Source: Escherichia coli (GTDB taxonomy: Bacteria > Pseudomonadota > Gammaproteobacteria > Enterobacterales > Enterobacteriaceae). From it: a DNA stretch of 64,000 bases. Below are positions 2,950-23,271 of this stretch, in pieces (the first letter of the stretch is position 1; every line of letters starts with the position of its first letter). Under the pieces are notes generated by a model that was not told where the DNA came from, did not search any database, and was given only the letters and a program-made list of their open reading frames with translations. Location: the NCBI RefSeq assembly GCF_041248615.1, contig NZ_CP158426.1; one strand, given 5' to 3'. A program made the translations under genes and the position numbers.

Positions 2950-4266
2950 ATGGCCGTCAATCTTACTGAAACAGCCATCCGAGCATTGAAAGCAAAAAAG
3001 ACATCGTTCTATGTCTGGAGCAACAGCTCTCAACGTGGCACTGGACGACTTGGTGTCAAAGTTCAGCCTTCTGGCAGCAAGATTTTCTATTTCCGCTATT
3101 ACGTGGAAAAAGGGAAAAAAGAAAGATTCATTCAATTGGGTATATGGCCTGAGATGAAACTGGCCACAGCGAATGAACTGGCAAAAAAGTATGGTGCCTG
3201 GCTCATTGAAGGAAAGGCTCCCCAGGCAGAACTGGAACGACAACAGTTTGCAGAACAGCAGCGGATACAACTCCATCAATCACAGGGCTCATTTGAAGCA
3301 TTGATTCATGGTTATGTTAACAAAATGAAAATTGATAATAAGAGGACATGGCAGGATGTTCTGAAACGCCTTGAAAATGAATGCTATACAGTGATCCCCC
3401 GTGAAACTAAAGCTAAAGATGTGACTTCCGGACAGATTAAACATATCCTGGCCGGGATCATTCAGCGCGGTGCTGTGGTTCACTCTAACCGGATCCGTTC
3501 TTACCTGATGGCTGCATTTAACTATGGACTGAAAGCAGATAACGATCCGATGAACACAAGTGTAGGGATTACTTTTGGGCTGGAGGCAAATCCGGTGTCA
3601 GTGATACCGAAACAGTCATCTGCTGAAAAAGTCGGTGATACCTGGCTGACACTTGAAGAGTTGCGTTTTCTAATGGAACATTTTGCTGAAGCAACCAACG
3701 TTGGATTATTGATGCAACATTTGATCCGATTCTGTATCTATACCGGAGGGCAACGTCCTTTCGAAATGATCGCCAGTCAGTGGTGTGATGTTGATTTTCA
3801 ACAAAAAACGCTGCTGGTGACTGCTGATGTCTCTAAAAATAAACGAGAGCATTTGATACCGTTGACTGAATCAGCATTACAGGAATTATCCTGTGTGCAG
3901 GAGTTAACAAAAGAAAAATCCAGCCCTTACATTTTTCCACTTTCGACTAATGGTAAGCGTCCGGTTCGTACGGACAGTCTGGCTCGCGCTATCATGTATT
4001 TCCGGGCTTTTAATCCTGACTTTAAAATTTTTACAGCACGTGACTTACGTCGGACCTGTAAAACGTTAATGGGAGAAGCTGGGATCAGTAAGGAAATCCG
4101 CGATCGTATTCAAAATCATGCGTTGAACGATGTCAGTTCAAAACATTATGATCGATACGATTATTTGCCAGAAAAACGCAGAGCACTTGAGATCTGGGAG
4201 GACCGGGTTAATAACTATCAACAGCAAACAGGCAATAATGTTGTCAATCTGTTTGGCAGAAGGTGA
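2950..4266 (+). CDS. P4-like tyrosine integrase (N-terminal arm-binding domain plus C-terminal catalytic domain)
   Basis: 438-aa ORF; N-terminus MAVNLTETAIRALKAKK...; C-terminal R...HxxR...Y catalytic residues (DLRRT, NHAL, SKHYDRYDY). Confidence 0.9.
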   Translation: MAVNLTETAIRALKAKKTSFYVWSNSSQRGTGRLGVKVQPSGSKIFYFRYYVEKGKKERFIQLGIWPEMKLATANELAKKYGAWLIEGKAPQAELERQQFAEQQRIQLHQSQGSFEALIHGYVNKMKIDNKRTWQDVLKRLENECYTVIPRETKAKDVTSGQIKHILAGIIQRGAVVHSNRIRSYLMAAFNYGLKADNDPMNTSVGITFGLEANPVSVIPKQSSAEKVGDTWLTLEELRFLMEHFAEATNVGLLMQHLIRFCIYTGGQRPFEMIASQWCDVDFQQKTLLVTADVSKNKREHLIPLTESALQELSCVQELTKEKSSPYIFPLSTNGKRPVRTDSLARAIMYFRAFNPDFKIFTARDLRRTCKTLMGEAGISKEIRDRIQNHALNDVSSKHYDRYDYLPEKRRALEIWEDRVNNYQQQTGNNVVNLFGRR

Positions 4267-4395
4267 GGGAGTTCCTGGTTGCTGTACGAATTGTGTACAA
4301 TTGATGGGTATTGTTGATGCACTTGGTTCTTGTATTGTTTACTATAATTATTGAGGTAAATTTTCGTGCCGGTATTACTCAGAGGGGATTCAAAA

Positions 4396-4992
4396 ATGGC
4401 TGTAATTCCAATGTCTTACTCCCCTGCTACTGTAGCTCGTCGTTTTTCGATACTGGATGGAGTAACTATTCAGGGCGTGCTTTACCAGATCATCTGGGAT
4501 CCAAAGACTCCGTTTGCTGCGGTAATCGAAGCTGCACCTTCTGTTATTGATGGTGATGTTCGCCATAAGGTTGTTGCCACTCTGGAGCTTCAGCGTCGTC
4601 CCCGGCTTGAAGGCGTGTTTGTCCAGAAATTCTGGGAAGAACAGGATGTTGCTCAGATTGAAGGGATTGTTGTCGATGGCGCTGTACGTGATGTTGGTCT
4701 TGCAACGTTTGTTTATGAAACGATAGTCACAAAAGCGGGCGTTGTACTATTAAGTGATAACGAGCAATATGAAGGAGGTAAAGCTCTCTGGCAGCATATT
4801 GCGCGTCGTTCAACGAATCTGAAGGTGTTTATTTTAGATACTGATTCCGCACGGTATTACCCGTTTGATGGCGAACGGATCAGTTATGACGGGAAAAGCA
4901 TCCCGGAATCAGAAATCTGGAGTGAACATCCTGAGCGAAACAGACACGCTGTCGTTCTTGTGGCTGAATCTGTTAATGGTAAAGCCGCATAA
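4396..4992 (+). CDS. Hypothetical protein (198 aa from ATG 4396; ORF open from 4366)
   Basis: Long ORF with plausible RBS (gagggg) upstream of ATG 4396; no recognisable motif. Confidence 0.45.
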   Translation: MAVIPMSYSPATVARRFSILDGVTIQGVLYQIIWDPKTPFAAVIEAAPSVIDGDVRHKVVATLELQRRPRLEGVFVQKFWEEQDVAQIEGIVVDGAVRDVGLATFVYETIVTKAGVVLLSDNEQYEGGKALWQHIARRSTNLKVFILDTDSARYYPFDGERISYDGKSIPESEIWSEHPERNRHAVVLVAESVNGKAA

Positions 4993-5074
4993 TTTGCTGA
5001 GTGTCTCATTTTTTGAGATCTTGCTGGAAAGTCTCCTTTGGGGATAGCGAACTGCTATCCCCTTTCTCAGTGAG

Positions 5075-6679
5075 TTACTGTTCGACCAGACATTTTCCCC
5101 ATAAAGGTCGTATCGAGTATCTATCTTCGCTATATGGATTTATTTTATTTTTTTCCCTCTGTGCTATCAGCAACGTGTCGATCTCATCCTTAATAATGTG
5201 TTGAACTGCTTGACGGTAACGGTTAAGCGAAGTGTCACTGATATCTTGTGGAAGTTGTAGACTGCCATCTGCCTTGACAAGTTCATTCACACCATCTTTA
5301 ATTCTGCGTCCCTGACCATCAGGTATACCTTCATTCAGATCATAGCCTTTTAGTCCTGCAAGACGAATATTCACGTCAATCTTTTCTGTACGTATCTTTT
5401 TGTTACTTACCAACAGAATTTTATTGGCGTTATACCATTTTTCAAATATTTCCAGTTGTTTCATGATGTTTGTGAAGTTATTCAGTTCGCTCCTGAATTC
5501 AATAGATTTTCTAATTTTACGCTCTTTTGCATCAATGTTTATTCCTGGATAATTTATTTCCATTTTTAACGGTTCTGTGTATGCCTGTTGCAGGCAATCA
5601 GCAAGATTCATTGCTGCATCCTGCAGGGTATTGGTATAAATCAGTTTCAGAAGTTCATCACGCTGTATAGTGATTTGACAATAGTCTTTTTCCCATGCGG
5701 TGGTGTTTTCAATCGTGTCACTTTCATCGGAAATAATTGTTGTGAACTTCCAGGTGTAACGAATAAAATCATTTCCTTTAAAATATTGCACTAATTTATT
5801 TAACCATTCATATATTTCCAGAGCATAAAGTTTAACGTATCCATCATATATTATCTTTGTTGCATTTTTGTTGGCTAGCGAAAACATTTTGTCCACGAAT
5901 TCTGTACGCCCGATTGTTAGCAATTGTTTTCTAAGTTTACTCACATCGTTAGTATCTGGTTTCTCACAATTCCAGGGACTTTTGTATTCATTTTCAAAAG
6001 GAGAAAGCCATTCAGGAATCTCTGTTTCTGAGTGATAGCAGTTGTTAATAGCCAAACCAAGGGTTCTGGCAAGTATCGCTGATTCATCAATTTGATGGTA
6101 TCGGTTCAGTTGTTCCAGTAATTCTTTAGTACATGAGTGCGCAACAGAAAGATCCTGATGGCAATATCCTTGTCGAACCAGAGCGGGAAGTGGTGAGCAA
6201 TGAGCTTTACAATCTGTCAGAATATTGAACAAATCGTTTCTGACGAATTCTTCCATCTCAGGTGTTTTCCAGCCACCACTATTTTGGCCGACAAATTTTG
6301 CTGTTGGTTCCCTGTTCATATCTCCCCAGGTTTTCAGGCTGACGAGTCTGTTATCAAAACCATTGTATAAATGGCACATAACCTGAAAAGCAGCATACAG
6401 ATCTTTAGATAGTGGATTATCGGTCTCACTTATGGAGTAGTTCTCTCTGTTTTTCTCTAAAATACTTTGGAGTTTTGTGTTAGCGCGTAATGCCGAGAGA
6501 ATCCGATGTTGTTCATCAAACCAAGGACGATATTCTGGATCCAGATACAATCTGCGTGCTTTGAAAATGAGTAGAAGCAACTGTTCGGAAACAGCTTCAT
6601 GTATGTGGGGAAACGGCATGGAGGTGCCGGATAAAACACGATAGTACGGGTGGTTTGTTTTTACCTTTTTAGTTACCAT
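5075..6679 (-). CDS. Hypothetical 534-aa protein, AT-rich orphan; candidate accessory or defence gene
   Basis: 1.6-kb uninterrupted ORF in strongly AT-rich DNA, where chance ORFs this long are improbable; no Walker A, HTH or nuclease motif identified by eye. Confidence 0.55.
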   Translation of the reverse strand: MVTKKVKTNHPYYRVLSGTSMPFPHIHEAVSEQLLLLIFKARRLYLDPEYRPWFDEQHRILSALRANTKLQSILEKNRENYSISETDNPLSKDLYAAFQVMCHLYNGFDNRLVSLKTWGDMNREPTAKFVGQNSGGWKTPEMEEFVRNDLFNILTDCKAHCSPLPALVRQGYCHQDLSVAHSCTKELLEQLNRYHQIDESAILARTLGLAINNCYHSETEIPEWLSPFENEYKSPWNCEKPDTNDVSKLRKQLLTIGRTEFVDKMFSLANKNATKIIYDGYVKLYALEIYEWLNKLVQYFKGNDFIRYTWKFTTIISDESDTIENTTAWEKDYCQITIQRDELLKLIYTNTLQDAAMNLADCLQQAYTEPLKMEINYPGINIDAKERKIRKSIEFRSELNNFTNIMKQLEIFEKWYNANKILLVSNKKIRTEKIDVNIRLAGLKGYDLNEGIPDGQGRRIKDGVNELVKADGSLQLPQDISDTSLNRYRQAVQHIIKDEIDTLLIAQREKNKINPYSEDRYSIRPLWGKCLVEQ

Positions 6680-7458
6680 AATGTTAAATTCTTCCGTCTA
6701 TTGCATAGCTGTTTCCAGTAGAGAAACTTGATACAGTCCTTTGTCAGGACATTGATACAGAGTTAACAGCCTCTACGAAATGGGAATCAGTTATGCAGTG
6801 GCATTATACGATGCTGAATCTAATACGATATCCTTAGCGTTTATTCCTGATTTTTTTACGAGCATTCCCTTTTGTTGCATATTGCTCAGGACGCAAATGA
6901 TTTTACGGTTATAGCCCTCTACAGTCACGTCACTTTCATCTGAAAATATGTATCGTTTTCATTCAATTATTATCTTTTGTCTGCACTTTAGCTTTAGAAA
7001 GTTGGCAAAAATCAACTCCCTCTTACAAGTTCTATTATCGCCAGAAGATAATTTTGTGAACTTCGTCACGTTTTCAAACTAATGTTGTGGGGGCTTTTCT
7101 GGGGAGAATTTTTGGTCACTACCCCTCCTCTTGATATCATAGATTATAACAAGATTTTTTTTGTTTTTGTCTGCATAAAATAACCTACGAATATTGTGAT
7201 TTTGATTTTTATTTTGTATACCAAAAAGCATTGTTTAAGTTATTTTTATATTGTGACTTTCTTTGTTGTTATTGTGTTATTAGAAGTCAGTTAATTAAAT
7301 CATTTCTCGCAATTTGATTTCTTGGTTGTGCAAATGTATTGTTTTGCTCGTGAGTTGCTGGTGCTGTTCAACAGCATACCACTACAGATAGATGTAGTGA
7401 TTTGAGCAGCTCACATGCATATACAATCTGAAAATCATGAATATATAAGGAGAGCAAT

Positions 7459-7686
7459 ATGTGGAAGCCGTTAAGAGATGAGAACCGTTTATCAATTTTG
7501 AAGATCTATGGATACACCTGTGACAGACTGGTACGAGAAAAGGAACGCCAGAAAATTACGTCTATTTCTCGTTCACAAGCCTGGAAACTGGAACGTGAAG
7601 GAAAATTCCCGCCACGTAAAACTATTGGAAAGAAATCCTGTGGGTGGTTATTAAGTGATCTATTGTGGTGGATTAGTCAGTATTAA
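7459..7686 (+). CDS. AlpA-family phage regulatory/excisionase-like DNA-binding protein
   Basis: 75 aa; AGGAG RBS; HTH plus EREGKFPPRK..G.....W...L..W motif typical of AlpA/Phage_AlpA. Confidence 0.7.
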   Translation: MWKPLRDENRLSILKIYGYTCDRLVREKERQKITSISRSQAWKLEREGKFPPRKTIGKKSCGWLLSDLLWWISQY

Positions 7687-7748
7687 CCTTATAGTATCAG
7701 AATAATATATATTTCTATATTTTAATTTTATAATTAAAAAGGAGTTTC

Positions 7749-8495
7749 ATGATGAAACGTGTCTCTTTCTCTCTTGCAGAAACATATGAAGCTGATGTAA
7801 TTAAAAAGTATCAGCATTTAAAAAAATGCTCATTTTCAGCAGCGATTAAAGAGTGTTTAAAGCTAGGGGCTCCTGTTTTAAACAGGATAAATGAAAATAT
7901 TGCTGCTATAACTGATATAGAGGATAAGCTACGTCAGTTTTTTAATGAGGAACCATTTGTGCAACGGACAAAGCCTGAAATAACAAAAGGAGAGTTTTTT
8001 CATAGCATTTATAAATCGCATATCAAATATGAATATGATGTTCTCGATAGAAAGATATTTCCTCATGAAAGCACCAGAAATGCTATGGGAGTTGCAGAGA
8101 AAAAGGGAATTAAAGAGAATGCGACCTTAATGCTGGAATATTATAAAGTTGAGAAGGCAATTTGTATTTACACGAACAGAAAAGTTTCCCATACCCTGAA
8201 TCGTGCAGGAGGGTTTTATAAAACCATTCTGATTAAAACCAGTGTTTTTGGGGATTATTTTTTTGACTTTTGCAATTCAGTTTGCCTGCCGATAGATGAG
8301 TTGATTGAGTATGGTACGAAAGAAACAGTGAGGCGACATCAGATTCGTAGTACAGGATTTTGTACTTTTCATATTCCGATTTTTTATATCAATAATAAGG
8401 CTGTAATAGTGCCTGTTCTGAGAACAGAGGAAGTTTCACAAAGTTCCAGAACAGGTGGAGATGTTATTATTATTAACCCATTTGAAGATGAATGA
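7749..8495 (+). CDS. Hypothetical 248-aa protein (possible N-terminal ribbon-helix-helix-like segment)
   Basis: ORF with AAGGAG RBS in AT-rich DNA; N-terminus KRVSFSLAETYEADVIKKY resembles RHH regulators; remainder unassigned. Confidence 0.5.
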   Translation: MMKRVSFSLAETYEADVIKKYQHLKKCSFSAAIKECLKLGAPVLNRINENIAAITDIEDKLRQFFNEEPFVQRTKPEITKGEFFHSIYKSHIKYEYDVLDRKIFPHESTRNAMGVAEKKGIKENATLMLEYYKVEKAICIYTNRKVSHTLNRAGGFYKTILIKTSVFGDYFFDFCNSVCLPIDELIEYGTKETVRRHQIRSTGFCTFHIPIFYINNKAVIVPVLRTEEVSQSSRTGGDVIIINPFEDE

Positions 8496-8716
8496 TTATG
8501 GCCCGCGTAGATTTATTCATAACCCAGAAATCGTGGTGTAAATGATGAACAGAAACCGCTTTCTGAGGTTAAAGAGAGCAATCATTACCCGGGAGTGGCC
8601 AACTCTTTTATCGAGTACTTTTCCGATGTATCTGGAGAGCCTCCCTTAGAAAAGAGTAATGCGACTCAGGAAAAAACAGGTTCAATAATTAATTCATGAC
8701 ACCAGTTTGAGGCATT

Positions 8717-9277
8717 ATGGCGAGTTTTGCATACATAGACTCTGAAAAATGGTCAAAACTTAATCGCTTAAAATCCATGATTCAGAGATATTTTAAAGAA
8801 CCACTATTGCAGTTAACAGGCGAATTGGGTCGCCCGGATTATACTCTGGCAGACAGAAAACGGTTAGTTCGACTCCTGACGCAGGATATGCAAAGGGGTG
8901 ATATTCTGATTACTAAATCGTTAACTTGTTTTGGTAATACGCCGGAAAAAATACAGGAGGTTTTATCTTTAAGTATCAGACAAGGTATTAATATTTGCTT
9001 TTTTACGTCATCAGAGTTGCCGGATGGTGATGATATTCCTGTGGTACTCACCGGGATGATTTTACCTACAGATATTAGAGGAAAAATTCCCGACATCAGT
9101 ATCCGGAAAATTAAAAGAAAACCAGGAAGGAAAGAAGGGAGTATTCATAGTAAAAATATCAGACAGTTGAAATTGCAGGGGTTCAGTCAGTCACAAACAG
9201 CCAGAAAATTAAGCATCAGTTTATCCACTGTAAAAAGACACTGGGATAAAGGTATTGTTGATCTAACTGCAGAGTAA
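8717..9277 (+). CDS. Small serine-recombinase-like protein (resolvase/invertase size and layout, divergent)
   Basis: 186 aa; N-terminal YIDSE segment, central GDILITKSLTCFGNTPEKIQEVLSLSIRQGINICF resembling resolvase core, C-terminal HTH (SQSQTARKLSISLSTVKRHW). Confidence 0.4.
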   Translation: MASFAYIDSEKWSKLNRLKSMIQRYFKEPLLQLTGELGRPDYTLADRKRLVRLLTQDMQRGDILITKSLTCFGNTPEKIQEVLSLSIRQGINICFFTSSELPDGDDIPVVLTGMILPTDIRGKIPDISIRKIKRKPGRKEGSIHSKNIRQLKLQGFSQSQTARKLSISLSTVKRHWDKGIVDLTAE

Positions 9278-9658
9278 CATTTTATAGTCCTTGTAGCTAT
9301 TGGCAATGGAGTTATAAATACATGTGCGTTGGATAGGTAATATATATTATATCTGTGATGTATAGTATATGTGTAATGATGGATATGATGTACTAATAGA
9401 GCTAATGGTATTCTGATACCAAATAATTAGTTGTGTGTAGATCATAACTCTGTTTAATGTTTTAGAACGTTCTAATGTAACTGTGTAACATCATCCTGTT
9501 CTCTAATGTAACAATAGGCAGTAGCGTTTTTCTTAATTGACGCCCAGAGGGTTATATATCCCTCTGGGAACTACTGATACGAATATTAATATCTGCTTCT
9601 GTTGTGTATTGGGTAGGTTAACTATTAGCTTATCTCTGAAAGCAAAAGGAATATTAAC

Positions 9659-10273
9659 ATGATTACGATTGAAACTCTTTACGGTGAATGTCATGAGGCT
9701 CACGGGTTAAAAATAAGAAACCAGGTGAATAACCTCTTCCAGAAACATCCCAGAATAACGGCAATACGGGTGGATCTCCATTATCCTCCCGTGATTGACA
9801 ACGGGGATACCATTACCTGTTTTCCTAACCTGAGTCCCGGAGAGATATCTCGTTTCCGTAACTCGCTGAATGCGAAAATTAATGCAGATCAACACCGTAA
9901 AAAACAACAAGGCAAACGCACCTACGCAACGTCGGTTTGTATTATCTGGGCGAAAGAATATACGCAGTCCTTTAAATGTCATTATCACGTCTGCCTTTTT
10001 TTTAACAAAGACGCCTATTACCACCTGGGAGACTATGAGCGCTCTGACACCCTGAGAGGGTTAATTACCGGAGCCTGGTACAGTGCCTTAGGGTTAGAAC
10101 TGGAAGATCACCAGGGACTAGTTCATTTCCCTGCTAATGGACGTTACATCCTGGATATTAACGATCCTGATTTCCCTGAGCAATATCAGCGCTTATTGGC
10201 ACGTCTGGATTATCTGACGAAGCTCGACACTAAAGCATCAGGCCAGCGTAACTTTGGCTACAGCGGTTTTTGA
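9659..10273 (+). CDS. HUH-motif protein (rolling-circle Rep-like / YagK-YfjJ inovirus-Gp2-like family)
   Basis: 204 aa; HUH-type motif CHYHVCLFF and downstream Y-x-x-K (DYLTK); family assignment from memory only. Confidence 0.45.
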   Translation: MITIETLYGECHEAHGLKIRNQVNNLFQKHPRITAIRVDLHYPPVIDNGDTITCFPNLSPGEISRFRNSLNAKINADQHRKKQQGKRTYATSVCIIWAKEYTQSFKCHYHVCLFFNKDAYYHLGDYERSDTLRGLITGAWYSALGLELEDHQGLVHFPANGRYILDINDPDFPEQYQRLLARLDYLTKLDTKASGQRNFGYSGF

Positions 10274-10300
10274 CCTATTGTAACTGTAAGGTGATTTATT

Positions 10301-10867
10301 ATGTATACAGAATCAAACGTTAAGCTTTCCTGTAACGCCCTCTGGCAAAAGTATGTCCTTGCAACTCTGTATCGGGCTGCAGCTACACATCCTAAAATTA
10401 AATTATTACAATTTAAATTAATACCTTGCCCAGGTATGAACAAGGCAATTCCCTCTCTGATGGCTGATTTTACTGGTGAACTGCATAGACTAATTTCTGA
10501 ATATTTGCAGTGCAAGCGACGTAAAGATAAATCTGTTGAGCCCGCCCCTTTATATTATCTCTGGAGTAGGGAAGCTGTGGCTAACGATACCACTCCTTAT
10601 CTTATGGTACTGCTACTTAATAACGATGTCTGGTGTAAGAGTCGTGAGGTGGTGGCTCTCAGAAATCTGATTGAGCAGGCGTGGGGAAAAGTATTGGGTG
10701 AAGATAACTCCATTACACATCTGGTTGTGTATCCTGAAGTGCTGTCGTTGGTATTTGATGCAGCTAACACATACAACGCTGAGCCTGGTGTACTGGAACA
10801 GACGGCCCAGGCTTACATTGAATCGCATGGTGCCATTGAACGTCATCTTGGGTGTAGTGACTTTTAA
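10301..10867 (+). CDS. Hypothetical 188-aa protein, probably co-transcribed with the HUH gene
   Basis: ORF 27 bp downstream of the previous gene with RBS taaggtga. Confidence 0.45.
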   Translation: MYTESNVKLSCNALWQKYVLATLYRAAATHPKIKLLQFKLIPCPGMNKAIPSLMADFTGELHRLISEYLQCKRRKDKSVEPAPLYYLWSREAVANDTTPYLMVLLLNNDVWCKSREVVALRNLIEQAWGKVLGEDNSITHLVVYPEVLSLVFDAANTYNAEPGVLEQTAQAYIESHGAIERHLGCSDF

Positions 10868-10977
10868 CGACGTCAGGTGATGCATAAGGGCCTTTCGCTG
10901 AGAGGCCCTGTTTACACAATTAAATAAGTCGAGCCCGACCAGCAATTTTGACGTTGACGGCAGGATTATTGAGGGGC

Positions 10978-11062
10978 AATCAATGTGTTCTTCGGCAGCG
11001 ATTACGGTAGTGAACGGACCTGCTGTCTGAATGGTATCGATCCGCAAGCGTATCTGCGCCAT
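10978..11062 (+). mobile_element. IS66-family transposase (TnpC) 3' remnant, truncated by IS2
   Basis: In-frame translation FFGSDYGSERTCCLNGIDPQAYLRH resembles the conserved IS66 TnpC C-terminal region; ends at the IS2 boundary. Confidence 0.35.
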
Positions 11063-12151
11063 TGGATTTGCCCCTATATTTCCAGACACCTGTTATCACT
11101 TAACCCATTACTGGCCCGCTGCCGTAGATATTCCCGTGGCGAGCGATAACCCAGTGCACTATGCGGATGCCATTCGTTATAATGCTCGAACGCCTCTGCA
11201 AGGTTCTTTGCTGCCGTTAACCCGTCTGGTTTGGGCATGATACTGATGTAATCACGCTTTATCGTTTTCACGAAGCTCTCTGCTATGCCGTTACTCTCCG
11301 GACTCCGCACCGCCGTGTTCTTCGGTTCAAGTCCCAGCATCCGGGCGAACTGGCGTGTTTCATTAGCCCGGTAGCATGAACCATTATCCGTCAGCCACTC
11401 CACTGGAGATGTCGGAAGCTCGCTGCCGAAGCGGCGTTCCACCGCTCCCAGCATGACGTCCTGTACTGTTTCACTGTCGAAGCCGCCCGTAGTGACCGCC
11501 CAGTGCAGTGCCTCACGGTCACAGCAGTCCAGCGCGAACGTGACCCCCAGTTTTTCTCCGTTATCACAGCGGAACTCGAACCCGTCAGAGCACCATCGTT
11601 GATTGCTTTCTTTCACGGCCACTTTGCCAGTATGTGCCCGTTTCGATGGCGGTACAGCGGTTTTTCGCTCAAGCAACAGCGCATTCTGGCGCATGATCCG
11701 GTAAACACGTTTGGCATTGATAGCAGGCATACCATCAAGTTCGGCCTGTCTGCGAAGCAGCGCCCATACCCGACGATAACCATACGTGGGCAGCTCTCCG
11801 ATAACATGGTGTATACGGAGAAGCACATCCGTATCATCTGAGTGACGGCTGCGGCGACCATCTTTCCAGTCATCGGTTCGTCTGAGAATGACGTGCAACT
11901 GCGCACGCGACACCCGGAGACAACGGCTGACTAAGCTTACTCCCCATCCCCGGGCAACAAGGGAGACCGTCATTCCCGGTTCAAAGCTCTGCTGAACAAT
12001 AGCGATCTTTTCCTGTGTAGTACGCCGTCTGCGTTTCTCCGGCCCTAAGACATCAATCATCTGTTCTCCAATGACTAGTCTAGAAACTAGTATTAAGACT
12101 ATCACTTATTTAAGTGATATTGATTGTCTGGAGATTCAGGGGGCCAGTCTA
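11063..12151 (-). mobile_element. IS2 deletion derivative (about 1.09 kb instead of 1.33 kb)
   Basis: IS2 terminal sequences at both ends (revcomp TAGACTGGCCCCCTGAATCTCCAGACA at 12122..12151; TGGATTTGCCCCTATATTTCCAGACA at 11063); internal deletion of about 240 bp. Confidence 0.85.
11074..12105 (-). CDS. IS2 transposase, in-frame InsC(N-terminal 36 aa)-InsD fusion created by the internal deletion
   Basis: 343-aa ORF: [36 protein letters not shown] joined directly to [18 protein letters not shown]... (InsD). Confidence 0.7.
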
Positions 12152-12485
12152 TATATCAATTAATCATTAGTTTAAAAGCTTGTTCAACTGCATACATCAT
12201 TAGCGTTTAAGCCAGTGAACAGGAAGTTTACTGGCTTAATTACAGTAATATAGTGTATCGCTATGCTCACTGAGTCTTAGATCTCCACCGTCGGTCTAAT
12301 ATTCGCACTCCTGCTAACAACCGGTAATCAAATCGTCCTCCGGTATTGAAAGTTAATACACAAATCAGGATGATGGAGGCTCATACTGGTACAGCGCGAC
12401 CACTTATGCAGGCGTCTCTGTCAGGTTTGTTGCCCGGATCACCCGCATCAGGGACAGGGCTGTTCAGTTATCCGCAGGAGAAAAT

Positions 12486-13496
12486 ATGTCACTCAAGGCT
12501 ATCGCCGCCGAACTCGGGATCTCTGTCACCACAGTCAGCCGGGCGCTTGGCGGATTTTCGGACGTTTCCGCTTCGACCCGTGCACGTGTAGAAGCGGAAG
12601 CTCGGCGTCGTGGTTATCGCCCGAATACCCTGGCAAGACGTCTCAAAACCGGTAAAACCGATGCGGTCGGCCTGGTCTTCCCTGAACATGCTGTACTGTT
12701 CAGCAGTAGTGTGTTTGTGGATATGGTCAGTTGTATCAGCCGGGAACTGGCCCGCCATGATATTGACTTACTGCTGATAGCCGATGATGAACGGGCTGAC
12801 AGCCACAGCTATATGCGTCTGGTCGAAAGCCGCCGGGTTGATGCCCTTATCGTGGCGCACACGATGGATAATGACCCGCGTCTTACACACCTGCAGGAGG
12901 CCGGTATTCCGTTTCTGGCACTCGGTCAGGTGCCGTCCGGTCTTCCCTGTGCCTGGTTTGACTTTGATAACCATGCAGGAACCTGGCAGGCCACACAGCA
13001 CCTGATTGCCCTGGGCCATCAGCGAATTGCCCTGCTGAGTGAGGACAACTCCCGTGCCTATGTCACTGCACGACGTCAGGGATGGCGCGATGCCCTGAGT
13101 GAACATGGTCTGCCTGAGACCTGGCTACGCCGGGTCTCTCCCACCCGACGCTCAGGTTTCCAGGCAGTGACTGAGTTAATGTCACTTCCGCTTCCCCCGA
13201 CGGCCATTATTACCGACAGTGACCTGATCGGTGATGGCGCGGCCATGTCGCTGCAGTTATCCGGTCATCTGTCCGGAGAGGATGCCGTCTCTCTTGTGGT
13301 TTATGATGGTCTGCCGCAGGACAGTATTATTGAACAGGATGTGGCTGCAGTTCTTCAGTCAACACGACATCGCGTCGGTCGTCAGATTGCCGACATGATA
13401 CGCCAGCTGGTCACGAATGTTTCACCTGAAATGCTACAAGTACTCTGGCAGCCGGAATTTCATCCTGGCAAGACAACGCTTGCTCCCTCCGCCTGA
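12486..13496 (+). CDS. rafR: LacI-family repressor of the raffinose operon
   Basis: 336 aa; N-terminal HTH MSLKAIAAELGISVTTVSRAL; immediately upstream of alpha-galactosidase/permease/invertase genes. Confidence 0.8.
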   Translation: MSLKAIAAELGISVTTVSRALGGFSDVSASTRARVEAEARRRGYRPNTLARRLKTGKTDAVGLVFPEHAVLFSSSVFVDMVSCISRELARHDIDLLLIADDERADSHSYMRLVESRRVDALIVAHTMDNDPRLTHLQEAGIPFLALGQVPSGLPCAWFDFDNHAGTWQATQHLIALGHQRIALLSEDNSRAYVTARRQGWRDALSEHGLPETWLRRVSPTRRSGFQAVTELMSLPLPPTAIITDSDLIGDGAAMSLQLSGHLSGEDAVSLVVYDGLPQDSIIEQDVAAVLQSTRHRVGRQIADMIRQLVTNVSPEMLQVLWQPEFHPGKTTLAPSA

Positions 13497-13518
13497 TTTT
13501 TAATCCCGCTCACAAATT

Positions 13519-13551
13519 CGAATCGTTTCGGTTGCTATCCGAAACGATTCG
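13519..13551. promoter_or_regulatory. Paired operator-like inverted repeat upstream of rafA (CGAATCGTTTCGG - 7 bp - CCGAAACGATTCG)
   Basis: Perfect 13-bp inverted repeat; each arm is itself a near-palindrome of LacI-family operator type. Confidence 0.45.
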
Positions 13552-13589
13552 GATCAACAGTAAGGCATACCCGAAAACGGAGATGTCTT

Positions 13590-15716
13590 ATGGAACCGAT
13601 GTACCGCAGGCTGACCAGTCCCCACTCAGACCTGATTATTAAAACCCACCCGTATGCAGAGATTGTCTGGTGGGGATCCACCCTGAAACACTTTTCACCG
13701 GATGACTGTATCAGCCTGGAAAGGCCGGTTGCGAATGGTCGTCTGGATACCGACACCCCACTGACGCTGATGGCCGAAAACGGCGCGGGACTTTTTGGCT
13801 CGCCGGGGCTGGAGGGACACCGCAACGGGCTGGATGCGTCCCCTGTGTTCCGTACCATCAGCGTGGTACAGGCCGGAGAATCACTCACCCTGACCAGTGA
13901 GGATGCAGTGGCGGGTCTGCGCATGGTCAGTGAACTGGTGCTGACATCGTCCGGTGTGCTGAAGATGCGTCATGCCCTGACGAACCTCCGTGAAGGGGAC
14001 TGGCAGGTGAACCGCTTCGCCATCACGCTCCCTGTGGCTGAAAGGGCAGAGGAAGTCATGGCCTTCCACGGACGCTGGACTCGTGAGTTTCAGCCGCACA
14101 GGGTCCGTCTCACACATGACGGTTTTGTGCTGGAGAACCGCCGGGGCCGCACGTCCCATGAGCATTTTCCGGCACTGATTGCCGGTGCCCCCGGTTTCTC
14201 AGAACAGCAGGGCGAGGTGTGGGCCGTACATCTGGGCTGGAGTGGCAACCATCGCATGAAATGTGAGGTCAAAACTGACGGACGGCGTTACCTCCAGGCG
14301 GAAGCACTGTGGATGCCCGGAGAAAAAGCCCTGAAGAAGGATGAGACCGTGTACACGCCGTGGCTGTACGCCAGCTATTCCCCGGAGGGGCTCAATGGTA
14401 TGAGTCAGCAGTACCACCGTTTTCTGCGCGATGAAATCATCCGTTTTCCTGAGCAGAAACCCCGTCCGGTGCACCTCAATACCTGGGAAGGTATTTATTT
14501 TGACCACGACCCGAACTACATCATGCAGATGGCCGGACGTGCGGCAGCGCTTGGCGTTGAACGTTTCATTATCGACGACGGCTGGTTTAAGGGACGCAAT
14601 GATGACCATGCGGCTCTGGGCGACTGGTATCTGGATGAACAGAAGTATCCGGACGGACTGATGCCGGTGATTAACCATGTGAAATCACTCGGCATGGAGT
14701 TCGGTATCTGGGTGGAACCGGAAATGATTAACCCGGACTCTGACCTCTTTCGCCGCCATCCTGACTGGGTACTGTCAATGCCGGGGTACACACAACCAAC
14801 CGGGAGACATCAGTATGTTCTCAACCTGAACATTCCTGAGGCCTTTGCTTACATTTATGAACGCTGTTTATGGCTGCTGGGCGAACACCCAGTTGACTAT
14901 GTGAAATGGGACATGAACCGCGAGCTGGTCCAGGCCGGGCATGAAGGTCGGGCGGCGGCGGACGCGCAGACCCGTCAGTTTTACCGGCTGCTGGATCTCC
15001 TGCGCGAACGTTTTCCCCGTGTTGAGTTTGAGTCCTGCGCTTCCGGCGGTGGACGTATCGACTTTGAGGTTCTGACCCGCACGCACCGCTTCTGGGCTTC
15101 TGACAACAATGACGCCCTGGAGCGCTGCACCATACAGCGTGGCATGAGTTACTTTTTCCCGCCGGAGGTTATGGGGGCACACATCGGTCATCATCGCTGC
15201 CATGCCACCTTCCGGCAGCACAGCATTGCCTTTCGCGGTCTGACGGCCCTGTTCGGTCATATGGGACTGGAGCTGGATCCGGTAACGGCCGGAGAAGAGG
15301 AATCCGCCGGTTACCGCCGCTATGCCTCGCTCTACAAAGAATGGCGGCAGCTTATCCACACGGGCACCCTATGGCGGGTGGATATGCCGGATGCGGCGAC
15401 ACAGGTGCAGGGGGTGGTCAGCCCGGATCAGTCGCAGGCGCTCTTCCTGGTGAGCCAGCTTGCCATGCCGGATCACACCCTGCCGGGTGCTCTACGTTTT
15501 CCGGGGCTGGCACCACAGGCCCGTTACCGGCTTCGTGTTGTTGACCATCCGGATATTCAGCTGGTCGGTGAAGGCGGGCATACCATGCGCAGGCTGCCCG
15601 GCTGGATGAACCAGACCTCCGACATCAGTGGGGAATGGCTGGCGCAGGCCGGTATTCAGCTTCCCGTACTGGATCCGGAAAGCGCCATGCTGATTGCCCT
15701 TGAACGTTTGGCATAA
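13590..15716 (+). CDS. rafA: Alpha-galactosidase (GH36)
   Basis: 708 aa; GH36 melibiase-type catalytic region (DDGWF...WVEPEM); raf operon context. Confidence 0.85.
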   Translation: MEPMYRRLTSPHSDLIIKTHPYAEIVWWGSTLKHFSPDDCISLERPVANGRLDTDTPLTLMAENGAGLFGSPGLEGHRNGLDASPVFRTISVVQAGESLTLTSEDAVAGLRMVSELVLTSSGVLKMRHALTNLREGDWQVNRFAITLPVAERAEEVMAFHGRWTREFQPHRVRLTHDGFVLENRRGRTSHEHFPALIAGAPGFSEQQGEVWAVHLGWSGNHRMKCEVKTDGRRYLQAEALWMPGEKALKKDETVYTPWLYASYSPEGLNGMSQQYHRFLRDEIIRFPEQKPRPVHLNTWEGIYFDHDPNYIMQMAGRAAALGVERFIIDDGWFKGRNDDHAALGDWYLDEQKYPDGLMPVINHVKSLGMEFGIWVEPEMINPDSDLFRRHPDWVLSMPGYTQPTGRHQYVLNLNIPEAFAYIYERCLWLLGEHPVDYVKWDMNRELVQAGHEGRAAADAQTRQFYRLLDLLRERFPRVEFESCASGGGRIDFEVLTRTHRFWASDNNDALERCTIQRGMSYFFPPEVMGAHIGHHRCHATFRQHSIAFRGLTALFGHMGLELDPVTAGEEESAGYRRYASLYKEWRQLIHTGTLWRVDMPDAATQVQGVVSPDQSQALFLVSQLAMPDHTLPGALRFPGLAPQARYRLRVVDHPDIQLVGEGGHTMRRLPGWMNQTSDISGEWLAQAGIQLPVLDPESAMLIALERLA

Positions 15717-15755
15717 AAGGACCGGAGCCGGTCACGGCTCCCTGCACTCAGTCCC

Positions 15756-17048
15756 GTGAGGATAACAATAATGAATACTGTCAGTACTCATAAAAACCCC
15801 GATTTCTGGATATTTGGTCTGTTCTTTTTTCTCTACTTTTTCATCATGGCAACCTGTTTCCCGTTTCTGCCCGTCTGGCTGTCAGACATTGTGGGGCTGA
15901 GTAAAACGGATACCGGGATTGTTTTTTCATGCCTCTCCCTGTTTGCCATCAGCTTCCAGCCGCTGCTGGGGGTCATCTCAGACCGTCTTGGCCTGAAAAA
16001 ACACCTGATGTGGATCATCAGCCTGCTGCTGGTCCTGTTTGCACCGTTCTTTCTGTACGTTTTTGCGCCGCTGCTGCGGTTCAACATCTGGGCCGGAGCA
16101 CTGAGCGGCGGGATTTTTATCGGCTTCGTTTTTTCTGCGGGAGCCGGTGCCATCGAAGCCTATATTGAACGTGTCAGCCGCAGCAGCGGATTTGAATACG
16201 GTAAGGCCCGGATGTTCGGCTGTCTGGGCTGGGCGCTGTGTGCCACCACGGCAGGGCTGCTTTTCAACGTGGATCCGTCCCTGGTATTCTGGATGGGGTC
16301 CGGCTGCGCATTGCTGCTGGTCCTTCTGGTGGCGCTGGCGCGTCCCGGAACCAGTCAGACAGCGATGGTCATGAATGCGCTGGGTGCCAACTCGCCCGTG
16401 ATTTCCGCCGGAATGGTGTTCAGTCTGTTTCGTATGCGTCAGATGTGGATGTTCGTGCTTTACATGATTGGGGTGGCCTGCGTCTATGACGTGTTTGACC
16501 AGCAGTTTGCCACGTTCTTCCGTGCATTTTTTGACACGCCGCAGGCGGGGATCCGGGCATTTGGTTTTGCCACCACGGCTGGCGAGATTTGCAATGCCAT
16601 CATCATGTTCTGCTCCCCCTGGATAATCAACCGCATTGGTGCCAAAAACACACTGCTTGTCGCGGGTCTGATTATGACCATCCGCATCACAGGGTCGGCC
16701 TTTGCCACCACGGCTACTGAAGTGGTGATCCTGAAAATGCTGCATGCCCTTGAAGTCCCATTCCTGCTGGTTGGTGCGTTCAAGTATATCACCGGCGTGT
16801 TTGATACCCGGCTGTCGGCCACCATTTATCTGATTGGCTTTCAGTTCTCCAAACAACTGGCGGCGATATTCCTCTCAACCTTTGCAGGTCACCTGTATGA
16901 CCGCATGGGGTTCCAGAACACCTATCTGGTTCTGGGCGGTATTGTCCTTGCGGTCACCGTGTTATCGGCTTTCACCCTGAGCAGTACCCGTAAAACGGCT
17001 GCCCCGTCAGCAGAAACCGCTACAGCACAGACGGAGGTTCGCTTATGA
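15756..17048 (+). CDS. rafB: Raffinose permease, LacY-family oligosaccharide:H+ symporter (true start possibly ATG 15771)
   Basis: 430 aa, LacY-like (FWIFGLFFFLYFFIMATCFPFLPVWL...). Confidence 0.85.
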   Translation: MRITIMNTVSTHKNPDFWIFGLFFFLYFFIMATCFPFLPVWLSDIVGLSKTDTGIVFSCLSLFAISFQPLLGVISDRLGLKKHLMWIISLLLVLFAPFFLYVFAPLLRFNIWAGALSGGIFIGFVFSAGAGAIEAYIERVSRSSGFEYGKARMFGCLGWALCATTAGLLFNVDPSLVFWMGSGCALLLVLLVALARPGTSQTAMVMNALGANSPVISAGMVFSLFRMRQMWMFVLYMIGVACVYDVFDQQFATFFRAFFDTPQAGIRAFGFATTAGEICNAIIMFCSPWIINRIGAKNTLLVAGLIMTIRITGSAFATTATEVVILKMLHALEVPFLLVGAFKYITGVFDTRLSATIYLIGFQFSKQLAAIFLSTFAGHLYDRMGFQNTYLVLGGIVLAVTVLSAFTLSSTRKTAAPSAETATAQTEVRL

Positions 17049-18475
17049 AACAGCGTCTTGCCTCTGCACAGGTTGCACTTGATACACTCCGCGCCCGTCG
17101 TGGTGATACCTGGTACCCGGTTTTTCATCTGGCTCCACCTGCCGGATGGATGAATGATCCGAACGGGCTTATTTATTTCAGCGGTCGCTATCACGCATTC
17201 TTTCAGCACCATCCGGCAAGTGAACATCAGGGGCCGATGCACTGGGGACATGCCACCAGTCCGGACATGCTGCACTGGCAGCATGAGCCGGTTGCGCTGG
17301 CACCCGGTGATGAATATGACCGGGATGGCTGTTTTTCCGGCAGCGCAGTGGACGACAACGGCGTGCTGTCGCTTATCTACACCGGTCATCTCTGTCTGGA
17401 GGATCGGGGGGATGACAGCATCATCCGCGAAGTCCAGTGTCTGGCAACCAGCCGTGACGGCATTCACTTTGAGAAACAGGGCTGCGTGCTGACGCCACCG
17501 GAAGGCATCATGCATTTCCGTGACCCGAAGGTCTGGCGGGAAGGGGGATACTGGTGGATGGTTATCGGCGCGCGGGATACCTCTGACACCGGTCAGGTGC
17601 TGCTGTATCGCGGCACATCCCTGCGGGACTGGCGCCAGGAACGGGTTCTAGCGCAGTCGGCAGCCGGAGAAAGCTATATGTGGGAATGTCCGGACTTTTT
17701 CCGCTGTGGCGACCATCACTGGCTGATGTTCTCCCCGCAGGGGATGACGCCCGGCGGATACCGGTTCCGCAACCGCTTTCAGAGCGGAGTTTTACCGGGT
17801 CACTGGCAGCCGGGGGCCGCCTTTGCCCTGAGCGGGGCATTTGAAGAACTGGATCACGGTCATGATTTTTATGCCCCGCAGTCCCTGGTCGCGGAGGACG
17901 GACGGCGCATCATCATGGCCTGGATGAATATGTGGGACTCCCCGATGCCTACAAAGCGTGAGGCCTGGGCCGGATGTCTGACCCTGCCGAGGGAACTTTT
18001 TGAACGCCATGGTCGTCTGTGTCAGCGTCCGGTTCGCGAAGCCGAATCCCTTCGCGGGACGTGCCAGCCGTTACACCCTGTAAGGCTCAGTGGCACGCAG
18101 TTGCTGGCTGAGGACGCACAGGCCGTGGAACTGGTGCTGACGTGGCATACCCTCGACAGTCAGGCAGAGCATTACGGCATCCACCTGGGAGACGGGCTCC
18201 GGCTGTATGTGGATAACCAGGCAGGACGGCTGGTGCTTTGGCGTCACTACCCGGATGAGGGGCTGGACGGTTACCGCAGTATCGCGCTGCCTGGCGCAGA
18301 ATATCTGACGCTACGGGTTTTCCTGGACCGTTCATCGGTGGAAGTGTTCGTTAACGATGGCGATGCCACCCTGTCCAGCCGTATTTACCCGCAGCCCGGA
18401 ACCCGCCGGTTGTCGCTATATGCAGCTCACGGCGAGGCTGTGCTGACGGACGGCTCACTGTGGACGCTGGCCTGA
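17045..18475 (+). CDS. rafD: Sucrose/raffinose hydrolase (GH32 invertase)
   Basis: 476 aa; GH32 N-terminal motif WMNDPNGL; overlaps rafB stop by 4 bp. Confidence 0.85.
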   Translation: MKQRLASAQVALDTLRARRGDTWYPVFHLAPPAGWMNDPNGLIYFSGRYHAFFQHHPASEHQGPMHWGHATSPDMLHWQHEPVALAPGDEYDRDGCFSGSAVDDNGVLSLIYTGHLCLEDRGDDSIIREVQCLATSRDGIHFEKQGCVLTPPEGIMHFRDPKVWREGGYWWMVIGARDTSDTGQVLLYRGTSLRDWRQERVLAQSAAGESYMWECPDFFRCGDHHWLMFSPQGMTPGGYRFRNRFQSGVLPGHWQPGAAFALSGAFEELDHGHDFYAPQSLVAEDGRRIIMAWMNMWDSPMPTKREAWAGCLTLPRELFERHGRLCQRPVREAESLRGTCQPLHPVRLSGTQLLAEDAQAVELVLTWHTLDSQAEHYGIHLGDGLRLYVDNQAGRLVLWRHYPDEGLDGYRSIALPGAEYLTLRVFLDRSSVEVFVNDGDATLSSRIYPQPGTRRLSLYAAHGEAVLTDGSLWTLA

Positions 18476-18486
18476 AATAATTCCAC

Positions 18487-18512
18487 TGCCGTCGGTGACG
18501 GCAGTACTTTCG
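18487..18512 (+). terminator. Hairpin downstream of rafD
   Basis: ctgccgtc ggtg acggcag followed by a T-containing tract. Confidence 0.4.
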
Positions 18513-18523
18513 GTTCACCCGTA

Positions 18524-19054
18524 ATGAAGGAAAGCACAATGGGATTACTGGGCAGGATTAAACAACTGATAAGTGAAAATGAGAAACCGGCGGAAGTCAC
18601 CCGCGTGATGGCACCGCTGTCCGGTGAAATTGTCCCTCTGGACACGGTTCCGGATGCTGTGTTTGCCGGGAAAATAGTGGGGGATGGTATTGCTATCCGT
18701 CCTTCCGGCGGCGATACCTTGATGGCTCCTGTCAGCGGCACTATCGGTAAAATACTGGAGACAAACCACGCGTTTTCCATCCGCACCGACAGTGGCACTG
18801 AACTGTTCGTGCACTTCGGTATTAACACAGTTGACCTCAGGGGAGAGGGTTTCCGGCGTATTGCCCAGGAAGGCCAGCTGATCAGCACCGGTGACCCCGT
18901 CATCGGGTTTGACCTTGCGTTACTTCAGCAGAAAGCACAGTCCACGCTGACACCGGTGATTGTGGCGGACTCTGACCGTGTCCAGGAGATAACCCTGTTC
19001 TCCGGCCCGGTCATCGCCGGAGAAACACCGGTTTTTGATATCAGCAGCCAGTAA
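18524..19054 (+). CDS. PTS EIIA-Glc (Crr-like) domain protein
   Basis: 176 aa with EIIA-Glc-type sequence (DAVFAGKIVGDGIAI...FVHFGINTVDL). Confidence 0.6.
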   Translation: MKESTMGLLGRIKQLISENEKPAEVTRVMAPLSGEIVPLDTVPDAVFAGKIVGDGIAIRPSGGDTLMAPVSGTIGKILETNHAFSIRTDSGTELFVHFGINTVDLRGEGFRRIAQEGQLISTGDPVIGFDLALLQQKAQSTLTPVIVADSDRVQEITLFSGPVIAGETPVFDISSQ

Positions 19055-19324
19055 GCGCCATGAGTGACAATATCGCCAGCGGGCAGCTGGTATCAGGGAA
19101 AGCCGCACATCTGGCCTGGTGCGGGCTGGTAGCCCTGCATCTGGCCCGCCGGGATGGCCGGATTGCGTCAAAAATCCAGGAAAACCTGTTTCTAAACCGC
19201 TGGCGGAGCACAGCACTGAAACAGCACCGTTTTCCCCGCACATATCAGAGCCCTGCAGAGTGAAAGCGGGGCGAAAGATATCCGCAGCAGGCTGGAGTAT
19301 CTGTGGCAGGCCTGCTCTGGTGAT

Positions 19325-19636
19325 GTGTCGGTACAGACTGACCTGTTCCGCCTGACATTCGCCCTGGAAACCATCAGGGAGCAGGGCTGGTGCTGGCGGA
19401 TACTGAGCGACCGGAAATGGGAGGGGCGTAATGTCGTGGTTCCGAACGGGGATGCCGGCAGCTTTTATCTTTCCCGCTCACGTCTTGAGGCGGCATTTGA
19501 TTATCAGGGGAGGTTGCTGCATCCCCTGACCGGCGATGTGTCTGCCCTCGCTGCCCTGCTCCGGAATGCGGGTTGGTATCCAATTCCAGCCGGAACCACG
19601 GATATGGCGATGTTTGAGCTGTCTGTCATCCGCTGA
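19325..19636 (+). CDS. Hypothetical 103-aa protein
   Basis: ORF only; no motif recognised. Confidence 0.3.
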   Translation: MSVQTDLFRLTFALETIREQGWCWRILSDRKWEGRNVVVPNGDAGSFYLSRSRLEAAFDYQGRLLHPLTGDVSALAALLRNAGWYPIPAGTTDMAMFELSVIR

Positions 19637-19665
19637 ATATGACTGATGAAAATCATGGAGTATGA

Positions 19666-20592: not shown

Positions 20593-20640
20593 CCGTTTCC
20601 TGCCCGTAACCGTTGTGCACGTCATTTTTGTTGCGGGTGA

Positions 20641-22188
<1,548 letters not shown>

Positions 22189-22193
22189 ACACT

Positions 22194-22219
22194 AACGCTC
22201 CCGGTGTACCGGGAGCGTT
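22194..22219 (+). terminator. Perfect hairpin 6 bp after the glycoporin stop
   Basis: aacgctcccgg tgta ccgggagcgtt. Confidence 0.4.
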
Positions 22220-22424
22220 GCCGGTCATTGTCCCGTAAATGAAAGCGTTGTTCATCAATAGGAATTTAAACCCCAAAAAGATTAAAAAAACACCTGAAAA
22301 AGGGCGCTTTCTCAGCATCGTCACACATGCCATAACTTCGACGTCATCAATTAAATGGACTTCATTGATTGATACCGGGTATCGTGACGGGAGCCTGTTT
22401 AGGATTCTGTGTAAATGCCTTTTC

Positions 22425-23204: not shown

Positions 23205-23271
23205 GGCATCGGTGACCTGAGCCGCCCCGGGAATCCTGGAGACTAAACTCCCTGAGAAAGAGGTAAACAGA

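Follow-up and report, generated by a model that had tools for sequence, protein, structure and literature searches.

The question raised by this locus is how a block of raffinose-utilisation (raf) genes came to be joined to a stretch of AT-rich DNA through a shortened IS2 copy whose two flanks do not match. The window analysed here is a stretch of 64,000 nucleotides of an Escherichia coli genome, and the shortened copy is referred to as IS2-delta242. In our reading, IS2-delta242 is very probably a defective, non-autonomous IS2 that forms the left terminus of a raf module of ~15.7 kb and serves as the splice point of that module onto a P4/CP4-like island backbone. A search of the literature on this raf island or on this IS2 derivative returned nothing specific.

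The island and the raf module

The chromosome of E. coli strain 165 matches the window at 99.8% identity, and the PGAP annotation used here was taken from the island of that strain, to which the same figure applies. The locus lies within a composite island of ~48 kb between nfeF (1889-2653) and the ileX tRNA (51124-51199, called by ARAGORN as tRNA-Met CAT). Behind the integrase, the island continues with an AT-rich backbone that includes two Gp2/YfjJ-type genes, then an IS66 fossil, IS2-delta242 and the raf cargo. To the right of raf follow an IS1414 fragment, an IS3-family IS that is split by an intron, lactate-utilisation genes, a type I restriction-modification system and a CP4-44-like block at the tRNA. 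The features that bear on the junction are as follows.

2950-4266, integrase at the start of the island
10985-11062, plus strand, 3' fossil of an IS66-family (ISEc23-like) tnpC, 78 bp (blastn against ISEc23, weak Pfam IS66_C match, five-way alignment)
11063-12151, minus strand, IS2 deletion derivative IS2-delta242, 1089 bp (alignments to K-12 IS2A and pSTEC174 IS2, multi-copy SNP table)
11074-12060, minus strand, fusion ORF of 328 aa, InsC 1-37 plus InsD 11-301 (ORF list, Pfam scan, PGAP CDS WP_001354443.1)
11950-11957, minus strand, deletion junction with the sole retained copy of TTGCCCGG, reading CCGGGCAA on the plus strand (IS2 alignments, SNP table)
12152-12485, plus strand, raf upstream region, starting TATATCAATT; adjoins the IS2 IRL in all raf-linked copies that were examined
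12486-22188, plus strand, raf cargo (PGAP annotation of strain 165, ORF lists)
12486-13496, plus strand, rafR
20692-22188, plus strand, RafY-type porin gene
22425-26769, no strand assigned, right-hand IS cluster, consisting of the IS1414 fragment and the IS3-family IS split by a group II intron; closes the module shared with PN43
23553-23669, ALIL pseudoknot of the right-hand IS3-family IS
26196-26282, group II intron domain match

Besides rafR and the RafY-type porin gene, the raf cargo encodes an alpha-galactosidase, an MFS permease, a GH32 invertase, a crr-like IIA protein, two DUF2913 proteins and a sugar kinase. Base composition changes across the junction, from 34-40% GC at 5-10 kb and 45% at 10-11 kb to 50% at 12-13 kb, where the raf upstream region gives way to rafR, and 55-60% at 13-22 kb (the raf genes). 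The first-pass annotation had described the junction as the boundary between an AT-rich block and the raf cargo, and this step from 34-45% to 50-60% GC agrees with it.

Identity of the IS2 copy and its 242-bp deletion

Its termini, its degree of sequence identity and its catalytic core all mark the segment at 11063-12151 as IS2. The IRR terminus reads TGGATTTGCCCC... at 11063 and the IRL terminus reads ...GGGGGCCAGTCTA at 12151, and the copy carries the characteristic IS2 termini TAGACTGGCCCCC... and ...GGGGCAAATCCA. Both terminal inverted repeats are intact and align base for base with those of K-12 IS2A, with one mismatch inside IRL. Copies of an IS that share about 95% or more nucleotide identity with a reference are by convention the same isoform, and the 40 substitutions that separate the window copy from K-12 IS2 over 1089 aligned bases (96.3% identity) thus place it within IS2. 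The closest full-length variant, on plasmid pSTEC174, differs by 6 substitutions. A full-length IS2 in the genome CFSAN061769 differs at 7 bases; that copy is a SNP mosaic with a K-12-like patch at columns 666-935 of the multi-copy alignment.

Relative to the 1331-bp K-12 IS2A and pSTEC174 IS2, exactly 242 bp are missing, which leaves 1089 bp and matches the earlier estimate of a copy of about 1.09 kb with a deletion of about 240 bp. That estimate had also placed the deletion between short repeats, and an 8-bp TTGCCCGG repeat is indeed found at both end-points, with an extended repeat form CCCTT[G/A]TTGCCCGG. In the full-length pSTEC174 IS2 the end-points read CCCTTGTTGCCCGG and CCCTTATTGCCCGG. 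Since the window copy keeps the G of the first repeat copy, the crossover lies inside the 8-bp TTGCCCGG. Slippage during replication, or else illegitimate recombination, would be the simplest origin of the deletion. The short copy is not an artefact of assembly or sequencing, since the identical deletion junction recurs in a Salmonella contig and in 250 genomes that were finished independently and come from many different hosts and countries.

With the deletion, orfA lost everything from codon 38 onward and insD its first 10 codons, and the A6G frameshift window with its slippery site disappeared. Since its length, 242 bp, falls one short of 3 x 81, the deletion replaces the normal -1 frameshift. 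The window copy thus shares with K-12 IS2A (insC1/insD1; IS3 family, IS2 group) the terminal repeats, the start of InsC and the DDE core of InsD, but in place of two overlapping ORFs, orfA/insC and orfB/insD, it has a single fused one and lacks a separate InsC. It also differs in this respect from the 1331-bp copies of CFSAN061769 and pSTEC174, which carry an annotated programmed frameshift. IS2-delta242 therefore departs from the organisation of IS2 in its two ORFs and frameshift, in its HTH and coiled coil and in the target duplication, and these features are missing because it is a decayed copy that sits at a recombinant joint.

The InsC-InsD fusion

The fusion ORF joins InsC M1-R37 in frame to InsD G11-I301, and PGAP labels its 328-aa product (WP_001354443.1) an 'IS3 family transposase'. 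An in-frame fusion had been predicted from the sequence with 36 codons of InsC; this count falls inside the ambiguity of the repeat (V35-A36-R37), and we read the joint as M1-R37. A Pfam scan gave complete matches to the HTH_21 (42.1 bits) and rve/rve_3 (68.8 and 66.3 bits) core, whereas only profile positions 2-36 of 75, about half, remain of HTH_Tnp_1. In the published map of the IS2 transposase, a three-helix H+HTH domain that binds the ends of the element spans residues 13-55, with the HTH at 30-51, a coiled-coil oligomerisation motif spans residues 73-100, and the first catalytic aspartate is D240 (PMC3219604). The OrfAB residues lost through the deletion, 38-118, span most of the HTH and the entire coiled coil on this map. 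The recognition helix and the coiled coil are thus both absent from the fusion, as is the frameshift site, and a separate InsC cannot be made. Point mutations in either the H+HTH domain or the coiled coil abolish binding or transposition (PMC3219604). From this domain mapping, the fusion is predicted to retain its DDE core but to be unable to bind IS2 ends or to multimerise. IS2-delta242 is accordingly predicted to be non-autonomous, and any movement would need transposase from other IS2 copies. Its remaining role would be passive, as a piece of portable homology and as a scar.

A different view of the fusion is that it is a retained functional protein, either a trans-dominant modulator of IS2 transposition or an active short transposase. 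The ORF is uninterrupted, keeps its native start codon and the IRL promoter region and encodes a complete rve/DDE core; expression might be de-repressed, given that the InsC repressor is no longer encoded; and the exact 328-aa sequence occurs on at least 1000 contigs, with the ORF intact in the copies examined. These copies are, however, ~99.7-100% identical, so the intact ORF points to a recent origin rather than to selection, and hitch-hiking with raf explains the abundance, every inspected copy being raf-linked. The same island also exists in versions with a full-length IS2 and with no IS2, and the deleted recognition helix and coiled coil are both needed according to the mutation data (PMC3219604). 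We consider a retained function very unlikely. A more specific form of the idea is if anything a little less likely again. In it, an IRL promoter freed from InsC repression drives the fusion, which would affect the IS2 copies resident in the cell in trans and, perhaps as a decoy consisting of a catalytic core, dampen or alter their activity. Were it true, an allele found in ~5% of complete E. coli genomes would turn out to be a natural modulator of transposition instead of debris.

A regulatory role of IS2-delta242 for raf was also considered and set aside. The transposase gene reads away from rafR and lies at a distance from it, and the 334-bp region in front of rafR does not differ in relatives that lack IS2. 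An effect on raf regulation is thus unlikely.

Distribution of the deletion allele

The deletion allele was tracked with a 60-mer across its junction in 5,426 complete E. coli genomes. It was present in 250 of them, at 259 places (median 1 per genome), all of them chromosomal, and the isolates came from humans, pigs, poultry, an amphibian source and water. Only two PLSDB records carried the 60-mer, a 354-kb non-mobilisable 'plasmid' of PN43 and a 17-kb linear Salmonella contig, and both adjoined raf. Every copy of the allele that was inspected is raf-linked. On this distribution the allele is common but behaves as a single locus and is not proliferating.

This pattern bears on whether IS2-delta242 is a miniature element that was mobilised in trans and transposed to its present site. 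Both terminal repeats are intact, most E. coli genomes hold other IS2 copies, and a few genomes carry 2-3 copies of the deletion junction, as such an element would allow. None of the deleted copies examined has a 5-bp duplication, though, IRL adjoins one and the same raf sequence throughout, and none of the 259 places in the 250 genomes is on an E. coli plasmid (RefSeq set). Transposition in trans is therefore an exceedingly improbable origin for the copy in the window.

The IS66 fossil at the junction

The two flanks of the window copy are gcgccat at IRR and tatatcaatt at IRL, so the adjoining 5-bp sequences, GCCAT and TATAT, differ and there is no target duplication. The first-pass annotation had reported the same mismatch, and it held on re-inspection. 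To the left of IRR the sequence reads ...CTGCGCCAT, and to the right of IRL it continues as TATATCAATT...

The left flank is a piece of IS66. Positions 10985-11062 translate as VFFGSDYGSERTCCLNGIDPQAYLRH, and 10986-11062 align to the C-terminal coding part of ISEc23 (IS66 family), ...FFGSD.G.ER...LNGIDP.AYLRH, and blastn gives 91% identity with the 3' part of tnpC across 53 bp. The Pfam match to DDE_Tnp_IS66_C is weak (21.8 bits, under the 30-bit cut-off), and PGAP marks the 78-bp fragment as a partial pseudogene. The identification of an IS66-type TnpC remnant at the right end of IS2 is upheld by these matches. In comparison with ISEc23, only these 78 bp are left in the window, where tnpA and tnpB are missing altogether, as are both inverted repeats and the remainder of tnpC; the tnpA-tnpB-tnpC order, the ...GCTTAC terminal repeats and the 8-bp duplication of the IS66 family were all looked for within the window and none was found.

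The fragment was already degenerate in the island backbone. The relatives M505, AR_0085 and NCTC9064 carry a longer remnant than the window does, which is likewise only a degenerate IS66 right end (...GCTAAC). In a five-way alignment, the fossil in the window lacks 25 bp that are present in these three genomes and retains 16 bp that they have lost, and it is therefore a distinct allele of the old fossil. It also lacks 27 nt (9 codons) internally relative to ISEc23. The earlier suggestion to look in related islands for an intact IS66 or for other junctions was followed up, and other IRR junctions were found, but no intact IS66; every relative inspected has a partial, frameshifted remnant. The IS66 piece is thus an old fossil of the island backbone whose right side was cut by the IRR of IS2, and not a recently intact IS66 that IS2 interrupted. 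A similar fragment of an IS66 tnpC end lies beside yeeW/cbtA in K-12.

Junctions in related genomes

A comparison of E. coli genomes showed that the joint between IRL and the TATATCAATT start of the raf region is invariant, whereas at least five different sequences abut IRR. The flanks at IRR are as follows.

Window and CFSAN061769: GCGCCAT
GN03551: ...CATTCTTTA, also given as ...CAACATTCTTTA
AR_0085 and three others: ...GATAATAGTACT / ...GCTAACGATAATAGTACT (complete IS66 fossil)
EM03-18-08: truncated phosphoethanolamine-transferase gene
PN43: ...TTGATGAA

A constant partner on one side, several on the other and the series of states at a neighbouring junction described below bear out the first-pass reading of the copy as the mark of a rearrangement and not of a simple insertion.

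The neighbouring junction, J1, has the target sequence CTTTA and the same orientation, and on the backbone allele that the window also carries it is placed 100 bp further right than the junction in the window. The raf-less genome UC4224 has an empty J1 site, ...caacattttttataattcttc..., and its backbone is continuous through both points. Br_167_kylling carries a full-length IS2 at J1 with a perfect CTTTA duplication and raf-less cargo downstream, and this IS2 is marked near IRR by six inserted bases, AATGTC. GN03551 shares with it the CTTTA flank at IRR and the 6-bp marker, but from the middle of the IS onward it has the 242-bp deletion and then TATATCAATT and raf; its IS2 differs from that of the window by 2 substitutions and one 6-bp indel. 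Because the flank and marker of Br_167_kylling are followed by the deleted, raf-linked half, the IS2 of GN03551 is a hybrid, formed by homologous recombination between a resident IS2 and a raf-linked IS2, with everything to the right exchanged.

At the window's own junction, CFSAN061769 has a full-length IS2 with both flanks as in the window. This copy was considered as proof that the 242 bp were lost in situ, but such a use of it is weakened by its SNP mosaic and by the fact that the CTTTA and GCCAT junctions each occur with full-length as well as with deleted IS2, which gives four combinations in all. SNP mosaics are visible among the IS2 copies, and the four combinations together with the CFSAN061769 mosaic indicate repeated exchange or conversion among them, so that the order of events is not readable from these data.

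An arrangement of the type found in M505, which has no IS2 and occurs in 20 genomes, was examined as an ancestral empty site with a TATAT target. This role is less likely for it, as AR_0085 has GATAATAGTACT, IS2 and TATAT in that order with no duplication of TATAT. The M505 arrangement may instead reflect a secondary loss of IS2 across TA microhomology. The joint between an IS2 IRL and GTACTCCTCTGGG in a raf-less, M505-like backbone had 0 matches in the 5,426 genomes. A search of E. coli for an IS2 IRL joined to GCCATATACTGAG gave only an unrelated two-piece match; that right flank belongs to the other allele than the window's and is uninformative for the window.

Origin of the window's junction

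How, then, did the IRR of the window copy come to lie in the IS66 fossil with no duplication? The arrangement that we favour begins with an IS2 whose IRL is fixed against TATATCAATT upstream of rafR, which is the state seen in the raf-linked copies. This IS2 would then have undergone homologous recombination with an IS2 resident in the backbone, an exchange documented at J1 and probable for the junction in the window, which by analogy is likely to have arisen as that of GN03551 did. Such an exchange would have swapped the previous cargo for raf and left a hybrid IS2 with flanks from different insertion sites, its IRR now inside the old IS66 tnpC fossil. A 5-bp duplication would be missing because the two flanks come from different insertion sites. 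The remaining element of the model, the deletion between the TTGCCCGG repeats, is seen directly in the sequence and cost OrfAB its residues 38-118. The raf-less continuation of the backbone, CTCCTCTGGGCATTTTTAATTTATG, is absent from the window, which indicates that raf replaced the earlier cargo and was not inserted into it.

Alternatively, the duplication may be missing because of an IS2 end-precise adjacent deletion, in which a GN03551-like CTTTA state lost the 100 bp between GCGCCAT and ...CATTCTTTA. Such a deletion would be transposase-mediated, with OrfAB supplied by another IS2 if the element already had its 242-bp deletion. GN03551 fits as a starting point, since it has the same backbone allele, the same 242-bp deletion and the same orientation, and its IRR is displaced from the window's junction by exactly 100 bp, to the right; the continuity of the UC4224 backbone through both points fits as well. 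Moreover, neither a precursor nor a reciprocal of the GCGCCAT-IRR joint, as expected for an independent insertion at GCCAT with the IS2 IRL followed by GCCATATTCTG..., was found among JGI metagenome contigs (0 matches to the exact pattern GGCCAGTCTAGCCATATTCTGWGCG). IRR is also the active donor end of IS2 (PMC3219604, PMC3299598). Against this stand the lack of the 6-bp marker of the GN03551 and Br_167_kylling IS2 in the window copy, although some J1 copies lack it too, and the full-length IS2 at the window's junction in CFSAN061769; the four combinations, moreover, already require recombination or conversion somewhere. To our knowledge, IS3-family elements, which move by copy-out/paste-in, are not noted for frequent adjacent deletions. 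An adjacent deletion is thus possible as the cause, and we hold it only tentatively.

Under recombination between IS2 copies, IS2 would have supplied the mobile stretch of homology by which the raf module with its bounding ISs (11063-26769) became attached to the backbone. Exactly this segment is common to the window and PN43, its limits being the outer ends of IS2 and of the right-hand IS3-family IS, and plasmid pLH50-c-A shares window positions 12152-24012. The raf block is thus found on the pLH50-c-A plasmid, in PN43, in the Salmonella contig and in chromosomal islands. In being bracketed by IS elements, the raf genes resemble catabolic modules that are bounded by ISs in the manner of a composite transposon. 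Unlike a classical composite transposon, however, the module is bounded by different ISs, IS2-delta242 on the left and another IS3-family IS on the right, and its movement is by recombination and not by transposition; no target duplication around the whole raf unit was found. The raf block is thus an IS-bounded module and not a composite transposon. For the raf genes themselves, the system for comparison is the raf operon of plasmid pRSD2 (rafRABD plus rafY); the raf operon and RafY are described in literature cited by PMC12987596.

The processes involved, slippage between short repeats, homologous recombination between IS copies and ordinary decay of an IS, are already known. Nothing here challenges what is known of IS2 or of IS-mediated recombination, and the value of the locus is local, for annotation and for the interpretation of the island. 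The 328-aa 'IS3 family transposase' is better flagged as a defective IS2 fusion and is not to be counted as an active IS2. The relatives also form a natural series, from an empty site through an insertion with its duplication to a recombinant between IS copies, that captures a swap of cargo in a family of integrase-bearing islands. For the interpretation of the island, the unmatched flanks of IS2 mark the seam of the ~15.7 kb raf module, and a statistical link between rafY and chicken-associated E. coli has been reported (PMC12987596).

Variable cargo beyond the IS66 fossil

The backbone formed by the integrase, YfjI, Gp2/YfjJ and the IS66 fossil (a 78-bp ISEc23-like tnpC remnant; window ~2950-11062) represents an island family in which the cargo directly past the fossil varies (loci L009, L010, L011 and L020).

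Cargo directly after the IS66 fossil
Window: raf (raffinose-utilisation cargo)
O157:H7 NE1127 and ETEC4068: type I Zorya (zorC/zorD)
NCTC9064: PTS/GH1 sugar cluster
UC4224: ShlB/POTRA genes

In the M505-like allele, divergence begins directly past GATAATAGTA, 10 bp outside the right end of the fossil. The position after the IS66 fossil looks like a cargo-exchange slot.

IS2 and the left junction of raf

In 20 genomes of the M505 type, raf is joined to the complete IS66 fossil without any IS2, with GATAATAGTA running directly into TATCAATT (L006 4143-4262 compared with L018), and the arrangement in AR_0085 is GATAATAGTACT, then IS2, then TATATCAATT. The IS2-free form may have arisen by excision across a 2-bp TA microhomology, or it may itself be ancestral.

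In raf-carrying plasmids, the insertion sequence adjoining raf is a member of the IS2 group distinct from IS2 itself (pLH50-c-A, L013 about 5041-6402). It shares only some 64% identity with IS2, has a terminus ending in CAGGGGGCCAGCTCA, and meets raf at the same nucleotide (the start of TATATCAATT) as the chromosomal IS2 does, such that one junction base at raf is common to two distinct insertion sequences. One possible explanation for the shared base is targeting of related IS ends. A real IS2 lies 5 bp from the other end of the IS2-group element in pLH50-c-A.

The junctions of the backbone with IS2-IRR and of IS2-IRL with raf are ~28 kb apart and on opposite strands in GPEC60-12-649 (NZ_CM160084.1), an arrangement that would fit inversion between two oppositely oriented IS2 copies. 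Strain 135 (L023) carries a full-length IS2 at the CTTTA backbone junction, 100 bp right of the window's IRR junction, and the IRL end of this IS2 lies inside rafR, forming a second, different IRL-side raf junction. The repressor gene is thereby truncated, and raf expression in this strain might be constitutive. The full-length IS2 of CFSAN061769 (L012), located at the window's junctions, contains a patch of K-12-type SNPs (alignment columns 666-935) that directly adjoins and enters the 242-bp region; the patch is probably a tract of gene conversion between IS2 copies.

Right end of the raf module and island layout

At its right end (window 22425-26769), the raf module is made up of an IS1414 fragment and an IS3-family element split by a group II intron, the reverse transcriptase of which has an internal stop. 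The uninterrupted form of the IS3-family element is found in pLH50-c-A, where homology with the window ends at 24012.

22425-23204: IS1414 fragment
23553-23669: ALIL frameshift pseudoknot of the IS3-family element
26196-26282: group II intron match (Rfam)

The entire island lies between nfeF and tRNA-Ile ileX (window 1889-51199), with ileX at 51124-51199 on the minus strand. Its integrase sits at the tRNA-distal end and a CP4-44-like block (Ag43, antirestriction, YeeS/T/U and CbtA) adjoins the ileX tRNA, a layout suggestive of tandem or rearranged islands. Further contents of the island include a type I restriction-modification system and a cluster of genes for lactate utilisation.
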